Of a DNA stretch of 64,000 nt, positions 5,823 through 51,850 are shown piece by piece (positions within the stretch are counted from its first letter, which is position 1; each line of letters opens with the position of its first letter). The notes beneath the pieces are model-generated. The model was not told the origin of the DNA, ran no database searches, and saw only the letters and a list, made by a program, of their open reading frames with translations. Made by a program: the position numbers and the translations under genes. The DNA comes from Trypanosoma brucei. Its lineage: Eukaryota. The stretch spans positions 448,001 to 512,000 of the forward strand of contig CH464491.1 in assembly GCA_000002445.1 (NCBI GenBank), given 5' to 3'.

Positions 5823-7010
5823 CTATTTTCTCAGTGGTCGAATAAGCCATCTAGGGTCTGAAATGTCCGAGAGAGGGCACACACCACTAAGTTTCATATA
5901 CCGGCGTGCGCCCCACACAGTGTGGACTTCTACAGAGCTATTCTCCAATAGACGTCTGTAGGCATTTTTCTGTTGGAAGGAAGAATCTCGAAGGGCTCTA
6001 AACCAACTTGTTTGGTTGAGATATTTGGGCATCAGGTTCCTCCACGCACTAATTGAGGTTGGGAAGTGCAAAACCACGCCACTTTCGACCGAAACACTGT
6101 GGGGATAATGAAAAAAACGCGTCTCGTAATCGAGGGATATAATTCCCCTTCGCAGCAGTAATTTTGGCTTCACATGCTTCGGCCTACTGACGCTCCATGT
6201 CAACACTATAGTCCACATAGTTTGATCACATAGCCAAATAAGGCTCTGGCGTCTCAAATTAAAGAAAACTTTCAAAGCCTCTTTTAGCGCCCACACTCTG
6301 GCTATCACGCCTCCGCCATTAAGATACGACCTTCCCGATTCATTTACCCTTAAAATATTTTCAACTCCCACACCCCTTGTTGCATCCATTGCGTCATCAA
6401 ACAACTTCTTACAGTTTTGAAACTCCGACCTCCCCTCCGGCTTCACCATGATATTCAGCTGAGGAGTAGCGCAACCCTTCTCAGCGGTAAACAACATTGG
6501 AGGTGTCATTTCTCCTCTTAAAATAGCCGTCTCGTTGAACGCTTCAGGGATTTTTGGTGTAGTGTCGAGGAAATGCTTCACTGCCTCCTCCCTAACACCT
6601 GCATCGGTGAAATAGGTATCTCCCCCATCGAACAACATAATCACATCACTTTCGCGCATCTTCTCACGCACCATGTAACTATAAATCCAGTCCCACCTCT
6701 TCACATGCCCATACCAGCCTCCCATGCCCAGTGTCGCAACCGATGCATTAGTGAGTATAGAACTTACAATCATCCTGCACCACCCCGGAGAGTACCTCGT
6801 GTGCACCACAGCATAATACACCCTCGGCGTATAATTTCTACCACTGTCTTTCTTTCTTAACAACGTCCCTGTTTCCTTGTTCCTCACGCTCATTTCTCCC
6901 AAAAACCAGAGCACAGTTAGCAGCATCACCCCCACCATCGCGGCATATAGTCTTCCCCTTGTGCCCCCATAAATTGCCCTAGCCCCTTTCAACATATAAA
7001 AACTTCGCAA
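5823..7010 (-). CDS. Type II membrane protein, putative glycosyltransferase (LH3/PLOD N-terminal GT-like), tandem paralogue 1
   Basis: 395-aa ORF with an N-terminal hydrophobic anchor (LYAAMVGVMLLTVLWFLG). The motif series TLGMGGWYGHVKRW / DVIMLFDGGDTYF / MLFTAEKGC / YLNGGGVIARVW is colinear, from memory, with TLGLGEEW / MIIMFVDSYDVI / LLFSAESFC / FLNSGGFIGF of lysyl-hydroxylase-type GT domains. Alignment to the paralogue suggests the true start is Met6 (6995). Confidence 0.8.
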   Translation of the reverse strand: MRSFYMLKGARAIYGGTRGRLYAAMVGVMLLTVLWFLGEMSVRNKETGTLLRKKDSGRNYTPRVYYAVVHTRYSPGWCRMIVSSILTNASVATLGMGGWYGHVKRWDWIYSYMVREKMRESDVIMLFDGGDTYFTDAGVREEAVKHFLDTTPKIPEAFNETAILRGEMTPPMLFTAEKGCATPQLNIMVKPEGRSEFQNCKKLFDDAMDATRGVGVENILRVNESGRSYLNGGGVIARVWALKEALKVFFNLRRQSLIWLCDQTMWTIVLTWSVSRPKHVKPKLLLRRGIISLDYETRFFHYPHSVSVESGVVLHFPTSISAWRNLMPKYLNQTSWFRALRDSSFQQKNAYRRLLENSSVEVHTVWGARRYMKLSGVCPLSDISDPRWLIRPLRK

Positions 7011-7128: not shown

Positions 7129-8292
7129 TTACTTTTTCAACTGCCCACTGAGCCAACTGGGGTCGGAGATGTTAGATATGGGGCATACGGTACTTAACTT
7201 AGCGTCTTTGCGGGAACCCCAGAAAGTGTACATCTCCACAGTGGAATTTTTCAGCAAACGAATGGAGGCCTCCCGCTTGGGGGAAGAATTGCTCAGTGCT
7301 CTATACCAATTTATCTCACTCAGATACTGTGGCAATGTACGCTTCCACACGTGAACTGGTCCCGCAAAATGCAGTATCATTCCACTCATAACCATCGTCT
7401 TGGATGGATAAAGGAAGTAACGCGTCTCATAGTCAAGAGATATTAGCCCCCTTCTCACCAACAGCGCTGGCTTTATATTCTCCGGCCTGGTGATACTCCA
7501 TATTAGCAAGAGTGCCCACATTGACTGGTCGCAACCCCAAACAAACTTTTTTTTTCTGAGGTTAAAGAATGCCTTCAGAGCCTCTTCTAGTGCCCACACC
7601 CTGGCAATTATTCCTCCCCCGTTGAGATACGATCTTCCCGATTCATTCGCCCTTAAAATAGAACGCAACCCTGTGCGATTGGAAACTACGAACGCCTCGT
7701 TGTACAGTTTACTGCACTGATGAGCGCGCTCGCTCTTAGGTGTCTTTACCATGAAATGACTTTGAGGGGTGAAACAGAAATTTTCGGCGGCCATCAACAT
7801 TGGAGGTGTCATTTCCCCTCTTAAAATAGCCGTCTCGTTAAACGCTTCAGGGATTTTTGGTGTAGTGTCGAGGAAATGCTTCACTGCCTCCTCCCTTACA
7901 TCCTCCCCTGTGAAGACCGTATCGCCCCCATCAAATATCACAATCACGTCACCCTCACTCATCTTCTTCTGCCGTAGGTACCGGTACAACCACAACCACC
8001 TGCTCACATGCCCATACCAGCCTCCCATGCCCACTGTGGCAACGCTCACATTAGTGAGTATCGAACTTACAATCATCCTGCACCACCCCGGCGCGTACCT
8101 CGTTTCTGCAACAAGAAAAAACACCCTTGGTATGTGATTACCGTAACTTCCATCCTTCTTCCCCTCCACGCTAGTTTCCCCACTCCCTACATTTCTTAAC
8201 CCCAACCACCAAAAAAATAACATCAGCACCAACCCCATAACATACAACCTGCCCCTTGAATCCCCATAGAATTCCCTAACACCTTTCAGCAT
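7129..8292 (-). CDS. Type II membrane protein, putative glycosyltransferase (LH3/PLOD N-terminal GT-like), tandem paralogue 2
   Basis: 387-aa ORF with an N-terminal anchor (LYVMGLVLMLFFWWLGL). It carries the same motif series as 5823..7010, with identical blocks such as KHFLDTTPKIPEAFNETAILRGEMTPPML and WCRMIVSSILTN. Confidence 0.8.
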   Translation of the reverse strand: MLKGVREFYGDSRGRLYVMGLVLMLFFWWLGLRNVGSGETSVEGKKDGSYGNHIPRVFFLVAETRYAPGWCRMIVSSILTNVSVATVGMGGWYGHVSRWLWLYRYLRQKKMSEGDVIVIFDGGDTVFTGEDVREEAVKHFLDTTPKIPEAFNETAILRGEMTPPMLMAAENFCFTPQSHFMVKTPKSERAHQCSKLYNEAFVVSNRTGLRSILRANESGRSYLNGGGIIARVWALEEALKAFFNLRKKKFVWGCDQSMWALLLIWSITRPENIKPALLVRRGLISLDYETRYFLYPSKTMVMSGMILHFAGPVHVWKRTLPQYLSEINWYRALSNSSPKREASIRLLKNSTVEMYTFWGSRKDAKLSTVCPISNISDPSWLSGQLKK

Positions 8293-8462
8293 ACAAACAG
8301 ATGTCTCTAAGAAATAAAAGGGTACGCACCCAGTGAGTGGACAACTACACGTTAAATCAAGGGAAACGAATAGTTAATGTTAAACATTAGTTTCCCAACA
8401 GTTAAGGCATGTAAATCCGGCACACCACAACACCAAAAACACATAAATATGTGCAACACCGA

Positions 8463-8526
8463 TTATCTCGGGATGCTGATGCTCCCACTCGCCTACATAT
8501 GAAGGCAGTGGGTCTCAATGCATACC
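8463..8526 (-). ncRNA. H/ACA-like (AGA-box) snoRNA candidate 2, copy 1
   Basis: Repeat copy of 9454..9517 (offset -991). ttatctcg at 8463-8470. This is the first element inside the array. Confidence 0.55.
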
Positions 8527-8617
8527 TCGTTAAATGTGAACCCAACGATAACGATATTCTGTGGGACAGATTCAAATAGATGAGACAACAGAGTAGTGTG
8601 CAGGCATTCAATACGTA

Positions 8618-8723
8618 CAACAGTCAGACCTGTTGAGTTTGATTTAGTATTCAATAAGCGCGCTCATAAAGTAAGGCATATTGACCTTCACGTACACATA
8701 ATCGTTGTTTCCATCACACTGCC
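8618..8723 (-). ncRNA. C/D box snoRNA candidate B, copy 1
   Basis: Repeat copy of 9609..9714 (offset -991). D box complement tcag at 8624-8627. Confidence 0.5.
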
Positions 8724-8966
8724 GCGTCTGTTGTGCATTCCCCCCATTTTCTTATCCACCTTCCCACCCAGATACCACAAACAAACCGCATGATCTCTCT
8801 TACACTTTCGAGCCAATACCGTCACCGAAAGTATACTGACAGGCAGCCAGACAGGGTAAGATTTGGTTCTAATGACATAATGCTGCGTAGAGCAAAGGTA
8901 GTGGGGGGGGGGAAAAAAAAGGATGTGGAGAGGGATGGAGGAAGGAAGGGAACGAGCTGCATAGCA

Positions 8967-9070
8967 GGCCATTGCTCAGCCGAAAGGTGATTTTTGATGT
9001 TCCGTTATCAATGCATCGCTCAAACTGTTTGGACCTCGAACAACAATTATGCATCACAGCATCAGTGGCC
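8967..9070 (-). ncRNA. C/D box snoRNA candidate C, copy 1
   Basis: Repeat copy of 9957..10060 (offset -990). ggcc starts at 8967. Confidence 0.4.
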
Positions 9071-9195
9071 AAAAAGAAAACTAGTAGCACACATATACAC
9101 ACACACGAACATAAACATAAACATAAACATAAACAGGGATGAATGACCTATGAGGAAGAGGGTGGATAAAAACAAAATAATAAGGATGGATGATA

Positions 9196-9290
9196 CTCGA
9201 TTCAGTGTGAGCTGAGTTAAAAATTATGTCTTCAAAATGGCTCTACTGCCGTCAGGCTGACAGGAAACTATTGACTGTCATCATTAGAGG
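9196..9290 (-). ncRNA. C/D box snoRNA candidate A (guide to conserved LSU rRNA GUGA*GCUGGGUU)
   Basis: Minus strand: CCUCUA-AUGAUGA(C box, 9278-9284)-22 nt-CUGA(D')-17 nt-UGAAGA(C')-23 nt-CUGA(D box, 9202-9205)-AUCGAG. The flanks CUC/GAG can pair. The 12 nt upstream of D (AACUCAGCUCAC) pair with LSU rRNA GUGAGCUGGGUU, including one G.U. Confidence 0.75.
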
Positions 9291-9325
9291 GGAAGATAAT
9301 GCATTTGAGTGCCAAAACTACAAAT

Positions 9326-9400
9326 GGCTCTCGCGCAACAGGACAGGGGCCACATCCCCACGGCATTAAATGGTTGCCACTGGCCCAAGGGATGCTGCGC
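9326..9400 (-). ncRNA. H/ACA-like (AGA-box, single-hairpin) snoRNA candidate 1
   Basis: Minus strand, 75 nt. Lower stem GCGCAGCA/UGUUGCGC (8 bp, one G.U). Pocket UCCCUU / CUGUCC. Upper stem GGGCCA/UGGCCC (6 bp) with a 28-nt apical region containing GGCA/UGCC. The hairpin is followed by G-AGA-GCC. AGA lies 15 nt from the top of the pocket and 3 nt from the predicted 3' end. Confidence 0.6.
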
Positions 9401-9453
9401 TGTATTGTTTCAACAGCACATAAGCAAAAACACATAAATATGTGCAACACCGA

Positions 9454-9517
9454 TTATCTCGGGATGCTGATGCTCCCACTCGCCTACATATGAAGGCAGT
9501 GGGTCTCAATGCATACC
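9454..9517 (-). ncRNA. H/ACA-like (AGA-box) snoRNA candidate 2
   Basis: Minus strand, 64 nt. Lower stem GG(U)AUGC/GCAUCC. Pocket AUUGAGA / AGCAUCA. Upper stem CCCACUGCC/GGC(G)AGUGGG (9 bp, one bulge) with a 10-nt loop. The hairpin is followed by CG-AGA-UAA. AGA lies 15 nt from the top of the pocket and 3 nt from the predicted 3' end. Confidence 0.55.
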
Positions 9518-9608
9518 TCGTTAAATGTGAACCCAACGATAACGATATTCTGTGGGACAGATTCAAGTAGATGAGACAACAGAGTAGTGTGCAGGCATTC
9601 GATACGTA

Positions 9609-9714
9609 CAACAGTCAGACCTGTTGAGTTTGATTTAGTATTCAATAAGCGCGCTCATAAAGTAAGGCATATTGACCTTCACGTACACATAATCGTTGTT
9701 TCCATCACACTGCC
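9609..9714 (-). ncRNA. C/D box snoRNA candidate B (guide to conserved LSU rRNA CCUGUUGAG)
   Basis: Minus strand: GGCAG-U-GUGAUGG(C-like box, 9702-9708)...UUGAAUA(C'-like)...CUCAACAGGU-CUGA(D box, 9615-9618)-CUGUU. The 5-bp terminal stem GGCAG/CUGUU has two G.U pairs. Guide positions 2-10 upstream of D pair perfectly with CCUGUUGAG of the conserved LSU motif GACCCUGUUGAGCUUGAC. Looser complementarity continues to ~22 nt. Confidence 0.5.
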
Positions 9715-9956
9715 GCGTCTGTTGTGCATTCCCCCCATTTTCTTATCCACCTTCCCACCCAGATACCACAAACAAACCGCACGATCTCTCTTACACTTTC
9801 GAGCCAATACCGTCACCGAAAGTATACTGACAGACAGCCAGACAGGGTAAGATTTGGTTCTAATGACATAATGCTGCGTAGAGCAAAGGTAGTGGGGGGG
9901 GGAAAAAAAAGGATGTGGAGAGGGATGGAGGAAGGAAGGGAACGAGCTGCATAGCA

Positions 9957-10060
9957 GGCCATTGCTCAGCCGAAAGGTGATTTTTGATGTTCCGTTATCA
10001 ATGCATCGCTCAAACTGTTTGGACCTCGAACAACAATTATGCATCACAGCATCAGTGGCC
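9957..10060 (-). ncRNA. C/D box snoRNA candidate C
   Basis: Minus strand: GGCCA-CUGAUGC-U-GUGAUGC (two overlapping C-like boxes)...UGAUAA(C'-like)...CUGA(D box, 9966-9969)-GCAA-UGGCC. The 5-bp terminal stem is GGCCA/UGGCC. I did not recognise an rRNA target, and a 4-nt spacer separates the D box from the stem. Confidence 0.4.
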
Positions 10061-10179
10061 AAAAAGAAAACTAGTAGCACACATATACACACACACGAAC
10101 ATAAACATAAACATAAACAGGGATGAATGACCTATGAGGAAGAGGGTGGATAAAAACAAAATAATAAGGATGGATGATA

Positions 10180-10274
10180 CTCGATTCAGTGTGAGCTGAG
10201 TTAAAAATTATGTCTTCAAAATGGCTCTACTGCCGTCAGGCTGACAGGAAACTATTGACTGTCATCATTAGAGG
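10180..10274 (-). ncRNA. C/D box snoRNA candidate A, copy 2
   Basis: Repeat copy of 9196..9290 (offset +984). C box complement tcatcat at 10262-10268. The sequence appears identical. Confidence 0.75.
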
Positions 10275-10309
10275 GGAAGATAATGCATTTGAGTGCCAAA
10301 ACTACAAAT

Positions 10310-10384
10310 GGCTCTCGCGCAACAGGACAGGGGCCACATCCCCACGGCATTAAATGGTTGCCACTGGCCCAAGGGATGCTGCGC
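10310..10384 (-). ncRNA. H/ACA-like snoRNA candidate 1, copy 2
   Basis: Repeat copy of 9326..9400 (offset +984). Confidence 0.6.
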
Positions 10385-10437
10385 TGTATTGTTTCAACAG
10401 CACATAAGCAAAAACACATAAATATGTGCAACACCGA

Positions 10438-10501
10438 TTATCTCGGGATGCTGATGCTCCCACTCGCCTACATATGAAGGCAGTGGGTCTCAATGCATAC
10501 C
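10438..10501 (-). ncRNA. H/ACA-like snoRNA candidate 2, copy 3
   Basis: Repeat copy (offset +984). ttatctcg at 10438-10445. Confidence 0.55.
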
Positions 10502-10592
10502 TCGTTAAATGTGAACCCAACGATAACGATATTCTGTGGGACAGATTCAAATAGATGAGACAACAGAGTAGTGTGCAGGCATTCGATACGTA

Positions 10593-10698
10593 CAACAGTC
10601 AGACCTGTTGAGTTTGATTTAGTATTCAATAAGCGCGCTCATAAAGTAAGGCATATTGACCTTCACGTACACATAATCGTTGTTTCCATCACACTGCC
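10593..10698 (-). ncRNA. C/D box snoRNA candidate B, copy 3
   Basis: Repeat copy (offset +984). Confidence 0.5.
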
Positions 10699-10942
10699 GC
10701 GTCTGTTGTGCATTCCCCCCATTTTCTTATCCACCTTCCCACCCAGATACCACAAACAAACCGCATGATCTCTCTTACACTTTCGAGCCAATACCGTCAC
10801 CGAAAGTATACTGACAGGCAGCCAGACAGGGTAAGATTTGGTTCTAATGACATAATGCTGCGTAGAGCAAAGGTAGTGGGGGGGGGGGAAAAAAAAGGAT
10901 GTGGAGAGGGATGGAGGAAGGAAGGGAACGAGCTGCATAGCA

Positions 10943-11046
10943 GGCCATTGCTCAGCCGAAAGGTGATTTTTGATGTTCCGTTATCAATGCATCGCTCAAA
11001 CTGTTTGGACCTCGAACAACAATTATGCATCACAGCATCAGTGGCC
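10943..11046 (-). ncRNA. C/D box snoRNA candidate C, copy 3
   Basis: Repeat copy (offset +986). ggcc starts at 10943. Confidence 0.4.
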
Positions 11047-11166
11047 AAAAAGAAAACTAGTAGCACACATATACACACACACGAACATAAACATAAACAT
11101 AAACACGGGATGAATGACCTATGAGGAAGAGGGTGGATAAAAACAAAATAATAAGGATGGATGATA

Positions 11167-11261
11167 CTCGATTCAGTGTGAGCTGAGTTAAAAATTATGT
11201 CTTCAAAATGGCTCTACTGCCGTCAGGCTGACAGGAAACTATTGACTGTCATCATTAGAGG
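11167..11261 (-). ncRNA. C/D box snoRNA candidate A, copy 3
   Basis: Repeat copy (offset +1971). D box complement tcag at 11173-11176. Confidence 0.75.
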
Positions 11262-11296
11262 GGAAGATAATGCATTTGAGTGCCAAAACTACAAAT

Positions 11297-11371
11297 GGCT
11301 CTCGCGCAACAGGACAGGGGCCACATCCCCACGGCATTAAATGGTTGCCACTGGCCCAAGGGATGCTGCGC
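11297..11371 (-). ncRNA. H/ACA-like snoRNA candidate 1, copy 3
   Basis: Repeat copy (offset +1971). Confidence 0.6.
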
Positions 11372-11424
11372 TGTATTGTTTCAACAGCACATAAGCAAAA
11401 ACACATAAATATGTGCAACACCGA

Positions 11425-11488
11425 TTATCTCGGGATGCTGATGCTCCCACTCGCCTACATATGAAGGCAGTGGGTCTCAATGCATACC
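11425..11488 (-). ncRNA. H/ACA-like snoRNA candidate 2, copy 4
   Basis: Repeat copy (offset +1971). Confidence 0.55.
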
Positions 11489-11579
11489 TCGTTAAATGTG
11501 AACCCAACGATAACGATATTCTGTGGGACAGATTCAAATAGATGAGACAACAGAGTAGTGTGCAGGCATTCAATACGTA

Positions 11580-11685
11580 CAACAGTCAGACCTGTTGAGT
11601 TTGATTTAGTATTCAATAAGCGCGCTCATAAAGTAAGGCATATTGACCTTCACGTACACATAATCGTTGTTTCCATCACACTGCC
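11580..11685 (-). ncRNA. C/D box snoRNA candidate B, copy 4
   Basis: Repeat copy (offset +1971). Confidence 0.5.
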
Positions 11686-11926
11686 GCGTCTGTTGTGCAT
11701 TCCCCCCATTTTCTTATCCACCTTCCCACCCAGATACCACAAACAAACCGCATGATCTCTCTTACACTTTCGAGCCAATACCGTCACCGAAAGTATACTG
11801 ACAGGCAGCTAGACAGGGTAAGATTTGGTTCTAATGACATAATGCTGCGTAGAGCAAAGGTAGTGGGGGGGGAAAAAAAAGGATGTGGAGAGGGATGGAG
11901 GGAGGAAGGGAACGAGCTGCATAGCA

Positions 11927-12030
11927 GGCCATTGCTCAGCCGAAAGGTGATTTTTGATGTTCCGTTATCAATGCATCGCTCAAACTGTTTGGACCTCGAA
12001 CAACAATTATGCATCACAGCATCAGTGGCC
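11927..12030 (-). ncRNA. C/D box snoRNA candidate C, copy 4
   Basis: Repeat copy (offset +1970). ggcc starts at 11927. Confidence 0.4.
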
Positions 12031-12155
12031 AAAAAGAAAACTAGTAGCACACATATACACACACACGAACATAAACATAAACATAAACATAAACAGGGAT
12101 GAATGACCTATGAGGAAGAGGGTGGATAAAAACAAAATAATAAGGATGGATGATA

Positions 12156-12250
12156 CTCGATTCAGTGTGAGCTGAGTTAAAAATTATGTCTTCAAAATGG
12201 CTCTACTGCCGTCAGGCTGACAGGAAACTATTGACTGTCATCATTAGAGG
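12156..12250 (-). ncRNA. C/D box snoRNA candidate A, copy 4
   Basis: Repeat copy (offset +2960). D box complement tcag at 12162-12165. Confidence 0.75.
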
Positions 12251-12285
12251 GGAAGATAATGCATTTGAGTGCCAAAACTACAAAT

Positions 12286-12360
12286 GGCTCTCGCGCAACA
12301 GGACAGGGGCCACATCCCCACGGCATTAAATGGTTGCCACTGGCCCAAGGGATGCTGCGC
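12286..12360 (-). ncRNA. H/ACA-like snoRNA candidate 1, copy 4
   Basis: Repeat copy (offset +2960). Confidence 0.6.
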
Positions 12361-12413
12361 TGTATTGTTTCAACAGCACATAAGCAAAAACACATAAATA
12401 TGTGCAACACCGA

Positions 12414-12477
12414 TTATCTCGGGATGCTGATGCTCCCACTCGCCTACATATGAAGGCAGTGGGTCTCAATGCATACC
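12414..12477 (-). ncRNA. H/ACA-like snoRNA candidate 2, copy 5
   Basis: Repeat copy (offset +2960). Confidence 0.55.
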
Positions 12478-12568
12478 TCGTTAAATGTGAACCCAACGAT
12501 AACGATATTCTGTGGGACAGATTCAAATAGATGAGACAACAGAGTAGTGTGCAGGCATTCAATACGTA

Positions 12569-12674
12569 CAACAGTCAGACCTGTTGAGTTTGATTTAGTA
12601 TTCAATAAGCGCGCTCATAAAGTAAGGCATATTGACCTTCACGTACACATAATCGTTGTTTCCATCACACTGCC
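12569..12674 (-). ncRNA. C/D box snoRNA candidate B, copy 5
   Basis: Repeat copy (offset +2960). A sixth copy at 13558-13605 is truncated by the array boundary and lacks the C box. Confidence 0.5.
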
Positions 12675-12915
12675 GCGTCTGTTGTGCATTCCCCCCATTT
12701 TCTTATCCACCTTCCCACCCAGATACCACAAACAAACCGCACGATCTCTCTTACACTTTCGAGCCAATACCGTCACCGAAAGTATACTGACAGGCAGCTA
12801 GACAGGGTAAGATTTGGTTCTAATGACATAATGCTGCGTAGAGCAAAGGTAGTGGGGGGGGAAAAAAAAGGATGTGGAGAGGGATGGAGGAAGGAAGGGA
12901 ACGAGCTGCATAGCA

Positions 12916-13019
12916 GGCCATTGCTCAGCCGAAAGGTGATTTTTGATGTTCCGTTATCAATGCATCGCTCAAACTGTTTGGACCTCGAACAACAATTATG
13001 CATCACAGCATCAGTGGCC
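12916..13019 (-). ncRNA. C/D box snoRNA candidate C, copy 5
   Basis: Repeat copy (offset +2959). ggcc starts at 12916. Confidence 0.4.
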
Positions 13020-13144
13020 AAAAAGAAAACTAGTAGCACACATATACACACACACGAACATAAACATAAACATAAACATAAACAGGGATGAATGACCTAT
13101 GAGGAAGAGGGTGGATAAAAACAAAATAATAAGGATGGATGATA

Positions 13145-13239
13145 CTCGATTCAGTGTGAGCTGAGTTAAAAATTATGTCTTCAAAATGGCTCTACTGCCG
13201 TCAGGCTGACAGGAAACTATTGACTGTCATCATTAGAGG
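13145..13239 (-). ncRNA. C/D box snoRNA candidate A, copy 5
   Basis: Repeat copy (offset +3949). D box complement tcag at 13151-13154. Confidence 0.75.
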
Positions 13240-13274
13240 GGAAGATAATGCATTTGAGTGCCAAAACTACAAAT

Positions 13275-13349
13275 GGCTCTCGCGCAACAGGACAGGGGCC
13301 ACATCCCCACGGCATTAAATGGTTGCCACTGGCCCAAGGGATGCTGCGC
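13275..13349 (-). ncRNA. H/ACA-like snoRNA candidate 1, copy 5
   Basis: Repeat copy (offset +3949). ggctct starts at 13275. Confidence 0.6.
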
Positions 13350-13402
13350 TGTATTGTTTCAACAGCACATAAGCAAAAACACATAAATATGTGCAACACC
13401 GA

Positions 13403-13466
13403 TTATCTCGGGATGCTGATGCTCCCATTCGCCTACATATGAAGGCAGTGGGTCTCAATGCATACC
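13403..13466 (-). ncRNA. H/ACA-like snoRNA candidate 2, copy 6 (variant)
   Basis: Repeat copy (offset +3949). It carries a substitution (gctcccattcgcc versus gctcccactcgcc) that creates a C/A mismatch in the predicted upper stem. Confidence 0.45.
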
Positions 13467-14826
13467 TCGTTAAATGTGAACCCAACGATAACGATATTCT
13501 GTGGGACAGATTCAAATAGATGAGACAACAGAGTAGTGTGCAGGCATTCAATACGTACAACAGTCAGACCTGTTGAGTTTGATTTAGTATTCAATAAGCG
13601 CGCTCTTTTTTTTTGGGAGAGGGTTACTTCTATTTGCTATATTATTTTTCTTGAACTGCAATGCCTTGCGTGAAGAAAATTATGAGGTGAAAAAAAAAGG
13701 TGTCAAGTTTTTGCTGTTATGGAATTGGTTTTTTTAATGCTTACTTGCTAAACTTTTTTTTTTTGGAGCAGAAGTGTTTACACATTTTCTTTTTTTCAAC
13801 TCATCATCCTGTCTTCCATTTTGTTATGTAACTGATCTTTATACAAATAAGAATGGATATTTGCAATGGAGAACGTATCGGTAGGATGGATGTGAGTTCT
13901 GACCCTTTATTCTGTGATCAGTTGTGGGATTTGCAATATATCTCTCGTGCGTTTTTTTAGAAAAAATATACCAAAGGATGAACAACTTAATGGTAAACGT
14001 TGGATCTTTTCTGCCGAATTTTTTCTTTCTTTTCTTCCATAACTTTTTTTTCTTGGAAGGTGGTTCTTTTCTTAACTTCTACCAAAGCATCGCCGCGTTA
14101 TGCAGTGCAAAGAGGCGAGTTTTTTTTATGTCGATCGAACCACCCTTTAAAAACAAGCAAAACCACGGATACGTAAACGTGTTAATGAGGTTGAGTGATA
14201 GCTTTTGTGACCAATCACCTCACGTGTGGTAACGGTAAGTAAAACAAAACGATGTAAAATGCGGCAAGGCAACAACGCATATGCGCAGTCACTTATATAC
14301 GAACAAATAACGAAATGACATATATATAATGGCAATTCATAAAAAGTGAGAGTAACCATGCCTTTGCAGTTGTGGAATCGTTGTTTTCCCTATTTCATCG
14401 ATTCCCTTGGTGGTTTGCCTTCATATGAAGCTGTGTCGGGCGCTTTCGACATACCCATCAATGCAACAATTCAAACTTGCACTCAGTCACTTTTTCCTTT
14501 TCCCCGTATCGGCGTGAGCTCTACGCTATTTCTCCTCCACTCTGTAGATATTGAGACGCTTGAACGATAACGTATATGAAATGCCCAGCAGTTGCAACCG
14601 CAAGCTTACACATGGATCACTGGACCTTTCCCATGCATAAAGCTAAATGCCATCTCCGAGGCAAGGCAAGAGAGTCGTGAAATACATGATCAAACGAAAA
14701 AATACGAAATGAGGCGACAAACGGCGGACTTCGCTCCGCCCAATAACTCAAATAAATAACACGCACCATATCCTGATTGCTTTACATAACATCCATCTCG
14801 CCACCCCTCGTCAGAACAAACAATTC

Positions 14827-16101
14827 TTAAAGACTGTTGATCAAATCTTTCGTAATGTTCTTGTGATGTGCCTCGAGTGTGCCGCCGCCGATCTCAAGCA
14901 ACTTCGCATCCCGCCACAGCCGCTCCACCGGCATATCACGCGCATATCCCATACCACCCATAACTTGCATGGCGTTGTCAGCCGCCCGCTTCGCAACAGG
15001 CGCTGCAAACAATTTTACCGCATCGCTCCCCAGGCGGTTGCAATTTCCTGGCGCCACACTCCTGCTTACAGCATATGTAAGTGATTTGGCCGCCTCCGTT
15101 TCTGCAAACGTCTCGGCAATGTAGCGCTGAATCTGTCCATAATTCCAAATGTGTTTACCAAACGTCTTACGCTCATTGGCATAACACGTCATGAGTTCCA
15201 CGCAACGATCAGCAATACCCACCGCCATTGCGGCCAATGTGAGACGCTCAACCTCCAGGTTACGCATCATTGCCACAAGCCCTTTCCCTTCAGTGCCGAG
15301 CAGATTCTCCTCTCCAAGCACCACATTATCGAAGAAAAGTTGACACATGTGAGACCCACGCATGCCGCACTTGTCAATCTTCTTCCCCACAGAAAACCCC
15401 GATGCACCCTTCTCTACAACGAACGCGGTGATTTTGCCGTCAACCTTTGCATACACAAGAACAAGGTCAGCAACGGTACCATTTGTCACCCACGTCTTGC
15501 CACCGTTAAGAATATACTTTCCATTACTTTCTTTTGTCGCAGTGGTCAGCATACCAAGAACATCTGTACCCGCACCGGGTTCCGACATGCCCATTGCACC
15601 TATGTGCTCGCCTGTAAGCACTTTGGGGAGCCACCGCTCCCGTTGTGCCGCTGTGGAAGCATGATAGAAGTTGTTCACAAAAAGCATCGAGTGAGCCAAG
15701 TAGGCGAGACAAAAGCCTGGATCCACTTTGGAAAGCTCGTGGTGGATAACAACCGCTGCCGTGGCGTCCATTCCAGCACCACCGTCTCCCTCAGGAATGG
15801 TTACACCGAGTACACCAAGGTCACCCAACTCGCGTAGGAGATCAACATTAAAATGCATGTCAATATCGCTCTGTTTTGCCTGCGTTTCAACCCGCTCCGC
15901 TGCGAATCTTTGAACCGTTTCACGCAGCATCTTGTGTTCAGGTGTTGGGTTTAAAAGATAATCCAAGTTAACGGTCGTCGAAGGAGAGAAAAAACGGAGA
16001 CCACATGGTGCTACCAGCGCAGTGTAGTGTCGTCTAATAGACGCTAAACGATACGAGCGCATGCTCAACAGGGGGAAATGAAACAAAACGCTCAAATTCA
16101 A
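14827..16101 (-). CDS. IVD: Isovaleryl-CoA dehydrogenase (acyl-CoA dehydrogenase family), mitochondrial
   Basis: 424-aa ORF with ACAD signatures GMSEPGAGTD and GGKTWVTNG. It has the IVD-type arrangement: Glu in NLEVERLTLA (compare DLERLVLA) and EIGGGTLEAH (compare YEIGAGTSEV). An Arg-rich presequence suggests the real start may be Met14 (16062). Confidence 0.85.
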   Translation of the reverse strand: MNLSVLFHFPLLSMRSYRLASIRRHYTALVAPCGLRFFSPSTTVNLDYLLNPTPEHKMLRETVQRFAAERVETQAKQSDIDMHFNVDLLRELGDLGVLGVTIPEGDGGAGMDATAAVVIHHELSKVDPGFCLAYLAHSMLFVNNFYHASTAAQRERWLPKVLTGEHIGAMGMSEPGAGTDVLGMLTTATKESNGKYILNGGKTWVTNGTVADLVLVYAKVDGKITAFVVEKGASGFSVGKKIDKCGMRGSHMCQLFFDNVVLGEENLLGTEGKGLVAMMRNLEVERLTLAAMAVGIADRCVELMTCYANERKTFGKHIWNYGQIQRYIAETFAETEAAKSLTYAVSRSVAPGNCNRLGSDAVKLFAAPVAKRAADNAMQVMGGMGYARDMPVERLWRDAKLLEIGGGTLEAHHKNITKDLINSL

Positions 16102-16838
16102 TAAGGCTCCTGTTTTCCCCCTCTTTTAATTCCCCACAAGTACAAGTTTCTTTTTCGATAATACCAACGAGATGCCGCAACAATCCACTACCCTCCCGGT
16201 AGTGTCAGCAGTTTCCCCCTTAATTTTCCACTTCCCCCACGATTATCCTCTACCCACCAGTTGGCTGCGCAGCGTCTAAGCACAGCACAAACAGTCACCG
16301 GCGCGTGAAAAAAAAAAAACTTATTCTGTCAAAGGTTTGTCGTCCGATGGCCTCCCGTTTTCGCTTGTTTTTATCCCTACTACTTTTCCCTTCCCTTCAA
16401 TTTTTTTTCAGGCACTGCGTATTTTGGGATGCAACGATGTGTGCAGACACTATCGAGGGAAGAACGAAAGATAGGAAGAAGGCTACAAAACAACAAGTGT
16501 ATTACTAAAAGTGAAGCAGAAGCAAATCCACAGCAAAAAAGGGAGCTCATGTAAACCTCCCCCCCCCTTCTTTTACAGGAAGCCACAAAGTGAGGGGAGC
16601 GATGCGGTCAGCTCACGCTTGCACAAGATCAAACAACAACAACCACAACAACCGACAAATAAGGTAGCGACACTTCCCTTCCTCGAACCAATCCTTCGTC
16701 CCTCTTCTCCAGCTCAGTTTCCAACCACTTTGCCGTTACCGAACCCGACAATATACCTCAAAACCGACACAAACAATATCAGGGAGAACGTACCGCCGTA
16801 GTTTTAAAACATACAAACTGCTTTATGCCATCAGCCAT

Positions 16839-20824: not shown

Positions 20825-20878
<54 letters not shown>
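20825..20878. repeat. (CA)27 microsatellite
   Basis: 54 nt of uninterrupted CA dinucleotide in the intergenic spacer. Confidence 0.98.
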
Positions 20879-50137: not shown

Positions 50138-51850
50138 TTAGTTATGTTCATCATCATCATCGTCGTCGTCATCATCATCATCATCGTCATCGTCATCCCC
50201 AGTGTCGTCATCAGCGTAGTTTCCTGTGTCGTCATCATCATCCCCAGTGTCGTCGCTGCTAAGGGTGGTGTGATCATCATCACTCTCACGGTCATCCCCC
50301 CTACGACCGTACATGGTAGAGCTCTCGCTGTCGCATTCATCTTCGCTGTCCTCACCCTCGCCATCTTTATCGCTGTTATCATCTTCATCGTTGTCATCAT
50401 CGACAGGATCGTGATCGTATATGGAAACCTCGTCACTGCTGTCGTCGCCATCGCTGCTGTCTTCTTCACTGCCGTCACTGTTATCATTACTGTCACCGTC
50501 ACTGTCACCGTCACTCTCGTCATCAACAGGATCATCATCACGCGTAGAGGGTTCGTCGTCACTGCTGCCATCATCGTCCGAATCGTCGGTTTCGCTATCG
50601 TCACTGTAGGACGAGCTGTAAGACCCACTGCCATCATCAGATGAGGCAGCCGAAGAGCTTTCGTCGTCATCTTTCGCATGTCCTGAGGTTGCTTCGAAAG
50701 CGTCTGCTCTGGTTTCGACCTCCATATCGCTGCTCGACCTACCAGAATTCATTCTGAAAGTACTGGCCGCGGCGGAGGCAACCGCGGCGTGAGCGATAGC
50801 CGAGCCCACGGCGCTTGCCCCGGCGGTAGATCCTACAAATCGTTTAGGCGGGGTACGAGTGAGGGATGAAGCACGAACTGGAGCAGCGACCGTACGTTCT
50901 CCCCTCACCATCAACATTTTTGACACCCCTTCCCCACGCGCTTTCCTTGAGAAAGAGTCACCACAACTATCCTCCACGGCAACCGTCTCATCCACCTCCT
51001 CCATACTTCTATAGCGGTGCTCCTTTTTAGTGGTCACCTTTTTCTTTTGTTGAAGGGCATATATAGCCATCTCCCGCTTCACAAGTAGCTCATTCGTTAT
51101 ACGGGCATGGTATTGATGCTGGATACCGAACATATCCCCTAATACCGCGTCCAGGTATTTCATCACAAAAACGAGATTTTCCTCCTCGATGGTGGCGTTG
51201 AAACTTCGCCGATCATCCAAGTTGTACTTCGTCGCTGCCCCTCCCGCGTTCGCAGCATCATCATCCTCATCCTCATCGTCCAGTAGATTGGATCCATCCT
51301 CTGTGTTCTTCGGGCCTGCGGTCACCACTTTTGCAGTTACTTCACCTGCAAGCGCAAAAGCCGATGGTAGTGCAGGGAAGGACTTGCCTTCACGTGCACC
51401 AAAGCCTCCACCCTCCCCTCCTTGCCATCTAGGTATTGGCTTCAAATGTAGCGAAGAGTGTTGTTTTTCCATCGACACGTGCCGCATCTTACCCTCGAAC
51501 GCAGCCAGGAGTGATGCAACATCATAAGGCCGGAGAAAAATACGACCAAAAAAGTAGTCCCCCGTGATATCAGTACTCACTTTACCTCCATTTGGGGCTG
51601 TCCTGTCTTCAGAAATCATCTTCGCTGCCGCCTCCGGTGCCATTCCCACATGACTGTCGGGAGACTGCACACTTAGTACAAGGTGCCGCTGACGGTTGCT
51701 CTTCCACCGCCACAGCAACACAGCCGGGTACTCGACCTCTCCCTTCGCAATGCTTACGGGAGTGCGCAGATCCCGCACAAAAACACTGCGACCACCCGCC
51801 TTGAGAAAGACGGCAGAAGCAAAAGTTACGGCGGAGATGCGGCGCCACAT
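50138..51850 (-). CDS. MRP1-related (Whirly-like) protein with long acidic D/S/E-rich C-terminal tail
   Basis: 570-aa ORF with a presequence-like N-terminus. Three blocks are colinear with the adjacent MRP1 ORF: LVLSVQSPD/LLLISQYPQ, IFLRPYDVASLLAAFEGKMRHVSMEK/VRLRHVDLAYLVGVCKERVPRHRMET, and VFVMKYLDAVLGDMFGIQHQYH/VTLEHFLESALDESFGFRQHYA. The C-terminal ~170 aa are almost entirely D/S/E and end in poly-Asp. Confidence 0.8.
   Translation of the reverse strand: MWRRISAVTFASAVFLKAGGRSVFVRDLRTPVSIAKGEVEYPAVLLWRWKSNRQRHLVLSVQSPDSHVGMAPEAAAKMISEDRTAPNGGKVSTDITGDYFFGRIFLRPYDVASLLAAFEGKMRHVSMEKQHSSLHLKPIPRWQGGEGGGFGAREGKSFPALPSAFALAGEVTAKVVTAGPKNTEDGSNLLDDEDEDDDAANAGGAATKYNLDDRRSFNATIEEENLVFVMKYLDAVLGDMFGIQHQYHARITNELLVKREMAIYALQQKKKVTTKKEHRYRSMEEVDETVAVEDSCGDSFSRKARGEGVSKMLMVRGERTVAAPVRASSLTRTPPKRFVGSTAGASAVGSAIAHAAVASAAASTFRMNSGRSSSDMEVETRADAFEATSGHAKDDDESSSAASSDDGSGSYSSSYSDDSETDDSDDDGSSDDEPSTRDDDPVDDESDGDSDGDSNDNSDGSEEDSSDGDDSSDEVSIYDHDPVDDDNDEDDNSDKDGEGEDSEDECDSESSTMYGRRGDDRESDDDHTTLSSDDTGDDDDDTGNYADDDTGDDDDDDDDDDDDDDDDEHN
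50147..50660. repeat. Trinucleotide-biased low-complexity DNA (GAY/TCN/GAR codons on the minus strand)
   Basis: Runs such as catcatcatcgtcgtcgtcatcatcatcatcatcgtcatcgtcatc. The region is open in several frames on both strands, which produces the spurious ORFs 49993..50679(-) and 50045..50644(+). Confidence 0.9.

Follow-up and report, generated by a model that had tools for sequence, protein, structure and literature searches.

A 5.2-kb tandem array made up of units of about 1 kb lies among minus-strand genes in a 64,000-bp stretch of Trypanosoma brucei DNA (contig CH464491.1, positions 448,001 to 512,000; hereafter the window), which raises the question of what the repeated units encode. A first-pass annotation, made by a model from the sequence alone, had read them as a reiterated cluster of small nucleolar RNA (snoRNA) genes with five RNAs per unit, three of the C/D type and two single hairpins with an AGA box. 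The kind of cluster (C/D and H/ACA-like genes mixed) and its strand stand. The count was too low: each unit holds six genes, since Rfam models identify three hairpin RNAs (TB11Cs4H1, TB11Cs4H2, and TB11Cs4H3) where two had been proposed. We identify the array, with a probability of about 0.97, as the T. brucei snoRNA cluster TB11Cs4, with six guide RNAs per ~988-bp unit in the order H3-C1-C2-H1-C3-H2, located within a minus-strand RNA polymerase II (Pol II) polycistron. The array is thus already known and belongs to the well-studied ribosomal RNA (rRNA) modification machinery of T. brucei. The family names refer to snoRNA cluster 4 of T. brucei chromosome 11, and the members C1-C3 and H1-H3 are said to have been catalogued by Liang et al. 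in 2005 (RNA 11:619). Whether these particular RNAs had been catalogued was a question left by the first-pass annotation, and the answer is yes: they are TB11Cs4C1-C3 and TB11Cs4H1-H3 (Rfam; published targets in PMC9283944 and PMC4855143).

Organization of the array

The repeat search gave start-to-start spacings of 991, 984, 987, 989, and 989 bp, the same unit lengths as had been reported, with copies beginning at 8422, 9413, 10397, 11384, 12373, and 13362. Tandem Repeats Finder (TRF) was run with a longest period of 500, and the ~988-bp repeat is therefore invisible to it. Homology between the copies starts at about 8434 and ends at 13605, within a truncated C/D gene, so that the limits proposed earlier (8430-13605) hold almost to the nucleotide; the array consists of five full units and a partial sixth. 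The five full units are nearly identical, with 19 of 992 aligned columns variable (MAFFT). These columns correspond to a (TATGTT)n microsatellite, one C/G homopolymer, two single-nucleotide polymorphisms (SNPs) in one RNA gene, and a few spacer SNPs and edge positions.

Read 5' to 3' on the minus strand, the array opens with a truncated C3 and an H2 gene, followed by five repetitions of H3-C1-C2-(polypyrimidine tract)-H1-C3-H2. In total, 31 gene copies were found intact and one more truncated (Table 1). The strong polypyrimidine tract noted in the first-pass annotation is real and recurs in all five units, where it occupies 52-64 nt between C2 and H1. A second pyrimidine-rich stretch was observed between C1 and C2 (10062-10180, minus strand, with a counterpart in each unit), after which come (TATGTT)n and (GT)n microsatellites.

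The array is flanked upstream by a gene (14827-16062, minus strand) whose product is 100% identical to the isovaleryl-CoA dehydrogenase of T. brucei equiperdum in a homology search, and downstream by an open reading frame (ORF) of 387 amino acids (aa) with its start codon at 8292. All 18 non-nested ORFs of at least 250 aa in the window lie on the minus strand, in agreement with the earlier assignment of this strand as the sense of the polycistron. Reiterated trypanosomatid snoRNA clusters are defined by repeated units and mixed gene types (PMC3273796). The array shows these features: its units are arranged in tandem, C/D and H/ACA-like genes are interspersed, and all of them are carried by the sense strand of a Pol II polycistron.

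H/ACA-like RNAs

The Rfam covariance search that had been suggested for the array was run over the whole window at the curated gathering thresholds (GA). It returned 16 full-length matches to TB11Cs4H1, H2, and H3, all within the array and on the minus strand, with scores of 67-90 bits and E-values of 4e-12 or less. TB11Cs4H3 (RF01541) is present in five copies of 90.2 bits (GA 40), TB11Cs4H1 (RF01539) in five copies of 77.8-82.5 bits (GA 45), and TB11Cs4H2 (RF01540) in six copies of 67.3-73.1 bits (GA 50); every copy is a member of its family by the Rfam threshold. In the Rfam alignments each RNA is composed of a lower stem, pocket strands of 6-7 nt, an upper stem, and a (G)AGA box, and the top of the pocket lies 14-15 nt upstream of the AGA box in H1, H2, and H3. 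This is the single-hairpin architecture by which trypanosomatid H/ACA-like RNAs are defined (one hairpin, a pocket, and an AGA box, and not two hairpins with H and ACA boxes; PMC3273796). Some sequence variation was detected between copies. The H1 copies represent three alleles: with a G/A difference at 9839 the lowest pair of the upper stem improves from G·U to A-U, and a C/T difference at 9834 falls in a bulge. In the 5'-most H2 copy (13406-13468) a G-to-A change disrupts one stem pair.

Pocket complementarity was evaluated on a surrogate ribosomal DNA (rDNA), L145, which is a complete unit of small-subunit (SSU), 5.8S, and large-subunit (LSU) rRNA and whose recovery is described with the C/D targets below. 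Bipartite complementarity flanking an unpaired U was found for the H/ACA-like RNAs. The H3 pocket forms 5+6 bp around the U at LSU 2644, which none of 300 shuffles reached, and the H2 pocket forms 6+7 bp around the U at SSU 1762, which 1.3% of shuffles reached. The best site of the H1 pocket, the U at LSU 3372, is located 19 nt 3' of the C1 D-guide site. These subunit assignments agree with published ones, according to which H2 targets the SSU (two sites, plus Ψ107 of U3) and both H1 and H3 target LSU3 (PMC4855143, Table S1). The same table lists H1, H2, and H3 with values in the thousands of reads per kilobase per million mapped reads (RPKM) in procyclic and bloodstream forms.

C/D RNAs and their rRNA targets

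The three C/D candidates per unit proposed earlier are confirmed by their boxes, guides, and conservation. They were read in the reference unit (10420-9413, minus strand), where candidates 1 (10272-10182), 2 (10060-9955), and 3 (9715-9615) correspond to C1, C2, and C3. C1 carries an AUGAUGA C box, a CUGA D' box, a UGAAGA C' box, and a CUGA D box. C2 is enclosed by a GGCCA/UGGCC terminal stem and contains GUGAUGC, a UUGA D' box, a UUGAUAA C' box, and a CUGA D box. GUGAUGG, an AUGAGC C' box, and a CUGA D box were identified in C3. The C boxes of C2 and C3 and the D' box of C2 are slightly degenerate; all three genes have the elements of box C/D RNAs. In alignments with Leishmania major and T. 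theileri the boxes of C1-C3 are invariant. In blastn comparisons of T. brucei with L. major only identical blocks of 15-18 nt survive, which end at the D' and D boxes (nt 21-35 and 74-90 of C1, nt 38-53 and 80-97 of C2, and nt 92-108 of C3), and the spacers show no conservation. Conservation in C1-C3 is thus confined to boxes and guides, a pattern characteristic of C/D guide RNAs.

Targets were predicted from guides of at least 10 nt adjoining the box, with the modified nucleotide placed opposite the fifth position upstream of D or D'. Only two sequences, L144 and L145, were recovered with the merged C1 target pattern, CTGACAGGRAAC..TGAGCTGRGTT, and both are eukaryotic LSU rRNA; Rfam scores on this pair were 1401 and 2045 bits for LSU_rRNA_eukarya and 1290 bits for SSU_rRNA_eukarya. 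Both sequences come from GTDB metagenome-assembled genomes (MAGs), L144 from a 'Bacteroidetes bacterium' (PKDX01000031.1) and L145 from a 'Curvibacter sp.' (RXJO01000217.1), in which the eukaryotic rDNA represents bin contamination. A metagenome scan with the merged C2 target gave 17 matches, of which 16 were chance matches (N{1,3} gap) and L015 alone was rRNA. By Rfam, L015 represents the 5' part of an LSU rRNA of eukaryotic type; CUGUUUGGACCCGAAAGGUGA occurs in it, with the two C2 targets adjacent. Viral contigs were also scanned for the C1 and C3 targets; one scan had no matches and the other gave chance 15-mers only.

On L145 all three RNAs show guide complementarity, with duplexes of 12-16 bp. 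The best duplexes of C1 predict modification at LSU 3341 (A) and 3353 (A), 12 nt apart; those of C2 at LSU 820 (U) and 831 (A), 11 nt apart; and that of C3 at LSU 2688 (G). The predicted modified nucleotides are accordingly A and A for C1, U and A for C2, and G for C3. Sites mapped by RiboMeth-seq are LSUb_1388 A and 1400 A for TB11Cs4C1, LSUa_916 U and 927 A for TB11Cs4C2, and LSUb_672 U and 673 G for TB11Cs4C3 (PMC9283944, Table 2). The predicted nucleotides and spacings equal these published sites, and candidates 1, 2, and 3 are therefore C1, C2, and C3. It has been shown that silencing of NOP1 significantly lowers four of the six sites (U916, U672, G673, and A1388), with LSUb_673 falling from 0.76 to 0.27, and causes no significant change at LSUa_927 and LSUb_1400 (PMC9283944, Table 2).

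No Rfam model matched the C/D members at threshold; the sole signal was that of C2 to snoZ196/R39/R59 (RF00134), at 27.3 bits against a GA of 55. This family includes plant and yeast RNAs (the yeast snR39/snR59 lineage), and C2 shares with it the box layout and the D-box guide ...CUUUCGG immediately preceding CUGA. C2 aims at the conserved CCGAA*AG site of LSU rRNA, which may correspond to Am807 of yeast 25S rRNA. However, the C2 guide is 3 nt shorter and its D' guide is trypanosomatid-specific. Because the score is far below the threshold, the guide is shorter, and the D' guide is its own, C2 is a functional analogue or distant homologue of snoZ196/R39/R59 and not a member by the Rfam criterion.

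In T. brucei the 5' (D') domain of C3 (9715-9660, minus strand) has diverged from the conserved version shared by T. theileri (L002, 13357-13400) and L. major (L006, 16972-17010), which reads ...UUUUGUGCGCGAG.... A search for an rRNA target of this domain, made with the versions of all three species, found only G·U-rich matches of 10-13 bp at unrelated sites. The authors of the RiboMeth-seq study note that no interaction domain was predicted for the 5' part of C3 and speculate on a non-rRNA substrate (PMC9283944). We consider it rather unlikely that part of the unit does more than the catalogue records. If it did, the C3 5' domain might guide methylation of a non-rRNA substrate, or the polypyrimidine tracts might define per-unit trans-spliced and polyadenylated precursors that set the relative abundance of the six snoRNAs.

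Comparison with other trypanosomatids

Syntenic loci were retrieved through the dehydrogenase gene from T. b. equiperdum (L001), T. theileri (L002), T. vivax (L003), L. major (L006), and T. cruzi. In L. major Friedlin (FR796423.1; L006 16150-21233) a snoRNA cluster lies downstream of the isovaleryl-CoA dehydrogenase gene, as in T. brucei. Orthologues of all six RNAs were found there, with H1 at 93 bits, H2 at 84-86 bits, and identical guides in C1-C3; the L. major H3 (16561-16627) scores 26 bits, below the Rfam gathering score of 40. The L. major cluster differs from the T. brucei array in gene order (C1-H1-H3-C1-C2-C3-H2) and in having nested sub-repeats of ~600 and 1073 bp. In T. theileri the cluster is again downstream of the dehydrogenase gene (L002 13350-13980), and C3, H2, H3, and a partial C1 were seen. 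The other two loci were not informative, as the T. vivax contig ends before any cluster and in T. cruzi the dehydrogenase gene is followed by RHS genes.

The same RNAs occupy the same position in T. b. equiperdum. In this assembly (L001 12460-13650, CM010682.1) the leader of truncated C3 and H2 is followed by one full unit, versus five in the window; the smaller number reflects either repeats collapsed during assembly or a genuine difference in copy number.

In T. theileri (L002 11898-12857) and L. major (L006 13348-14274) the dehydrogenase gene and the snoRNA cluster have a DUF1295 gene between them. It was also observed beside the dehydrogenase gene in T. vivax (L003 12293-13255). A tblastn search over the whole T. 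brucei window found no trace of it, and the 1.2-kb gap at 13606-14826 contains no long ORF.

Identity of the array and alternative explanations

The array shows no difference in kind from TB11Cs4. H1-H3 match the Rfam models over their full length, C1-C3 predict the published target nucleotides and spacings, and the published numbering fits the order of the array when read from C1 (C1-C2-H1-C3-H2-H3). The five full copies with the leader of truncated C3 and H2, the allelic differences in H1 and H2, and the exact coordinates were not found in the literature on TB11Cs4 that was consulted.

Several points weigh against the identification and limit how individual results are to be read. The target rRNA is a surrogate and not T. 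brucei's own (eukaryotic rDNA contaminating bacterial MAGs, and one metagenome contig). On L145 the real score of a single guide was equalled or beaten by the top shuffle out of 200 in four of five cases; single-guide scores are not above the best shuffles, and therefore weight is placed on the paired 12- and 11-nt spacings and on the published sites. The H1 pocket on L145 forms 3+7 bp around its U, a result which 25% of shuffles reach and which is weak when taken alone. The identity of C1-C3 depends on cluster position, predicted target nucleotides, and target spacing, as Rfam has no TB11Cs4C1-C3 models. Expression of the TB11Cs4 RNAs is known from the literature (PMC4855143 for H1-H3), as are the modified sites and their NOP1 dependence (PMC9283944). 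The gene structures, boxes, guides, rRNA complementarity, conservation, strand, and reiteration were established by our analysis of the sequence. To judge from the literature on trypanosomatid snoRNA clusters, the polypyrimidine tracts would serve in trans-splicing and polyadenylation of the precursor.

It is very improbable that the units are decaying or silent snoRNA pseudogenes and that the functional TB11Cs4 RNAs are made at another locus. Some degeneration is visible at the 5' edge, where the outermost unit is truncated (partial C3) and its H2 has a stem-breaking substitution, and the T. b. equiperdum assembly with only one full unit could be read in the same direction. However, the five full units are near-identical, and all 30 of their genes keep full-length structure, boxes, and guides. 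Synteny also links the locus to its counterparts in L. major and T. theileri; moreover, the family names locate the catalogued genes in a chromosome-11 cluster, and the published RNAs are abundant (PMC4855143).

A tandemly repeated small protein-coding gene, whose product would be encoded by plus-strand ORFs of 135-138 aa or by a minus-strand ORF of 137 aa, has a negligible probability. ORFs of 135-138 aa do exist in some units, but they begin with GTG or TTG, and sister units of almost the same sequence lack them or have shorter versions. No array ORF had a Pfam match above the cut-off. The ORF listing and this result agree with the earlier judgement that the array is non-coding, with ORFs of 138 aa or less whose extents vary from copy to copy. 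Most of the ORFs are antisense to the transcription unit and overlap RNA genes scoring 67-90 bits, and it is the snoRNA boxes and guides, not the ORFs, that are conserved across species.

Tandem repeats in T. brucei can yield small interfering RNAs (siRNAs). Beyond this general knowledge nothing was found in favor of functional plus-strand transcripts (an antisense long non-coding RNA or an siRNA-generating repeat, with the snoRNA-like features incidental), and we give the idea next to no chance, because no plus-strand Rfam match rises above noise, the boxes, hairpins, and rRNA complementarity work on the minus strand only, the whole window is a minus-strand transcription unit, and discrete minus-strand species of snoRNA size have been published for H1-H3 (strand-specific RNA-seq, PMC4855143).

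Proposed mode of action

As members of TB11Cs4, C1-C3 would pair with LSU rRNA through the 10-16 nt just upstream of D' and D, and fibrillarin/NOP1 would 2'-O-methylate the nucleotide opposite the fifth position. C1 would act on LSUβ A1388 and A1400, C2 on LSUα U916 and A927, and C3 on LSUβ G673 (with U672). Box C/D snoRNAs as a class are defined, besides their boxes and guides, by binding to fibrillarin/NOP1, NOP56/58, and SNU13 and by snoRNP-dependent methylation. In H1-H3 the pocket formed by the internal loop, 14-15 nt 5' of the AGA box, would present the target uridine to CBF5; H2 is predicted to act on SSU rRNA, and H1 and H3 on the 3' half of LSU rRNA. Trypanosomatid snoRNA clusters are transcribed polycistronically, and individual snoRNAs are processed from the precursor (PMC3273796). 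By analogy with such clusters, the five copies are probably co-transcribed as one precursor and cut into individual snoRNAs. The reiteration most plausibly serves gene dosage.

The significance of the array reaches little beyond correct annotation, as its targets, expression, and NOP1/CBF5 dependence have been published. A reader given nothing except the sequence was able to recognize a trypanosomatid snoRNA cluster, and exact coordinates are now available for all of its gene copies, the truncated one included.

Table 1. Genes and polypyrimidine tracts of the TB11Cs4 array, listed 5' to 3' on the minus strand (positions in the window)
Feature	Position	Strand	Basis
Whole snoRNA array	8434-13605	-	Repeat spacing, unit alignment, boundary check
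Truncated C3 copy: 3' half (C' box remnant, D guide, D box), without C box; 5' edge of array	13564-13605	-	Sequence; same partial copy in T. b. equiperdum L001
TB11Cs4H2, sixth (5'-most) copy; G-to-A change breaks one stem pair	13406-13468	-	Rfam, 67.3 bits versus 73.1 in the others
TB11Cs4H3 copy (H/ACA-like, AGA box)	13275-13350	-	Rfam, 90.2 bits
C1 copy, C/D (AUGAUGA ... CUGA D' ... UGAAGA C' ... CUGA D)	13147-13237	-	Boxes, cross-species alignment
C2 copy, C/D	12914-13019	-	Boxes, cross-species alignment
Polypyrimidine tract, C2-H1 interval	12854-12905	-	
TB11Cs4H1 copy, A allele at first upper-stem pair	12745-12815	-	Rfam, 82.5 bits
C3 copy, C/D	12575-12675	-	Boxes, cross-species alignment
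TB11Cs4H2 copy	12417-12479	-	Rfam, 73.1 bits
TB11Cs4H3 copy	12286-12361	-	Rfam
C1 copy	12158-12248	-	
C2 copy	11925-12030	-	
Polypyrimidine tract	11865-11916	-	
TB11Cs4H1 copy	11756-11826	-	Rfam, 82.5 bits
C3 copy	11586-11686	-	
TB11Cs4H2 copy	11428-11490	-	Rfam
TB11Cs4H3 copy	11297-11372	-	Rfam
C1 copy	11169-11259	-	
C2 copy	10941-11046	-	
Polypyrimidine tract	10869-10932	-	
TB11Cs4H1 copy	10769-10839	-	Rfam, 80.7 bits
C3 copy	10599-10699	-	
TB11Cs4H2 copy	10441-10503	-	Rfam
TB11Cs4H3 copy	10310-10385	-	Rfam
C1 reference copy	10182-10272	-	Boxes, guides, alignment
C2 reference copy; GGCCA/UGGCC terminal stem; weak Rfam snoZ196/R39/R59 match	9955-10060	-	
Polypyrimidine tract, the one noted in the first-pass annotation	9894-9946	-	
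TB11Cs4H1 copy, T allele in bulge	9785-9855	-	Rfam, 77.8 bits
C3 reference copy	9615-9715	-	Boxes, guide, alignment
TB11Cs4H2 copy	9457-9519	-	Rfam
TB11Cs4H3 copy	9326-9401	-	Rfam
C1 copy	9198-9288	-	
C2 copy	8965-9070	-	
Polypyrimidine tract	8894-8956	-	
TB11Cs4H1 copy	8794-8864	-	Rfam
C3 copy	8624-8724	-	
TB11Cs4H2 copy, 3'-most gene of array	8466-8528	-	Rfam

Other features of the window

The array is closely followed on the minus strand by two tandem paralogous ORFs, 58% identical to each other (7129-8292, 387 aa, and 5823-7010, 395 aa). A hydrophobic segment lies at the N terminus of both predicted proteins, and Pfam gave no match for either. In T. b. equiperdum one copy occupies this place, 84% and 72% identical to the 387- and 395-aa ORFs, and the pair looks like a variable, lineage-specific gene family. 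A (CA)27 microsatellite is present in an intergenic region at 20825-20878. Imperfect TCA/TCG-rich repeats were observed at 50148-50282, inside a minus-strand ORF of 570 aa (50138-51850), where they would encode an acidic, serine-rich stretch of low complexity.

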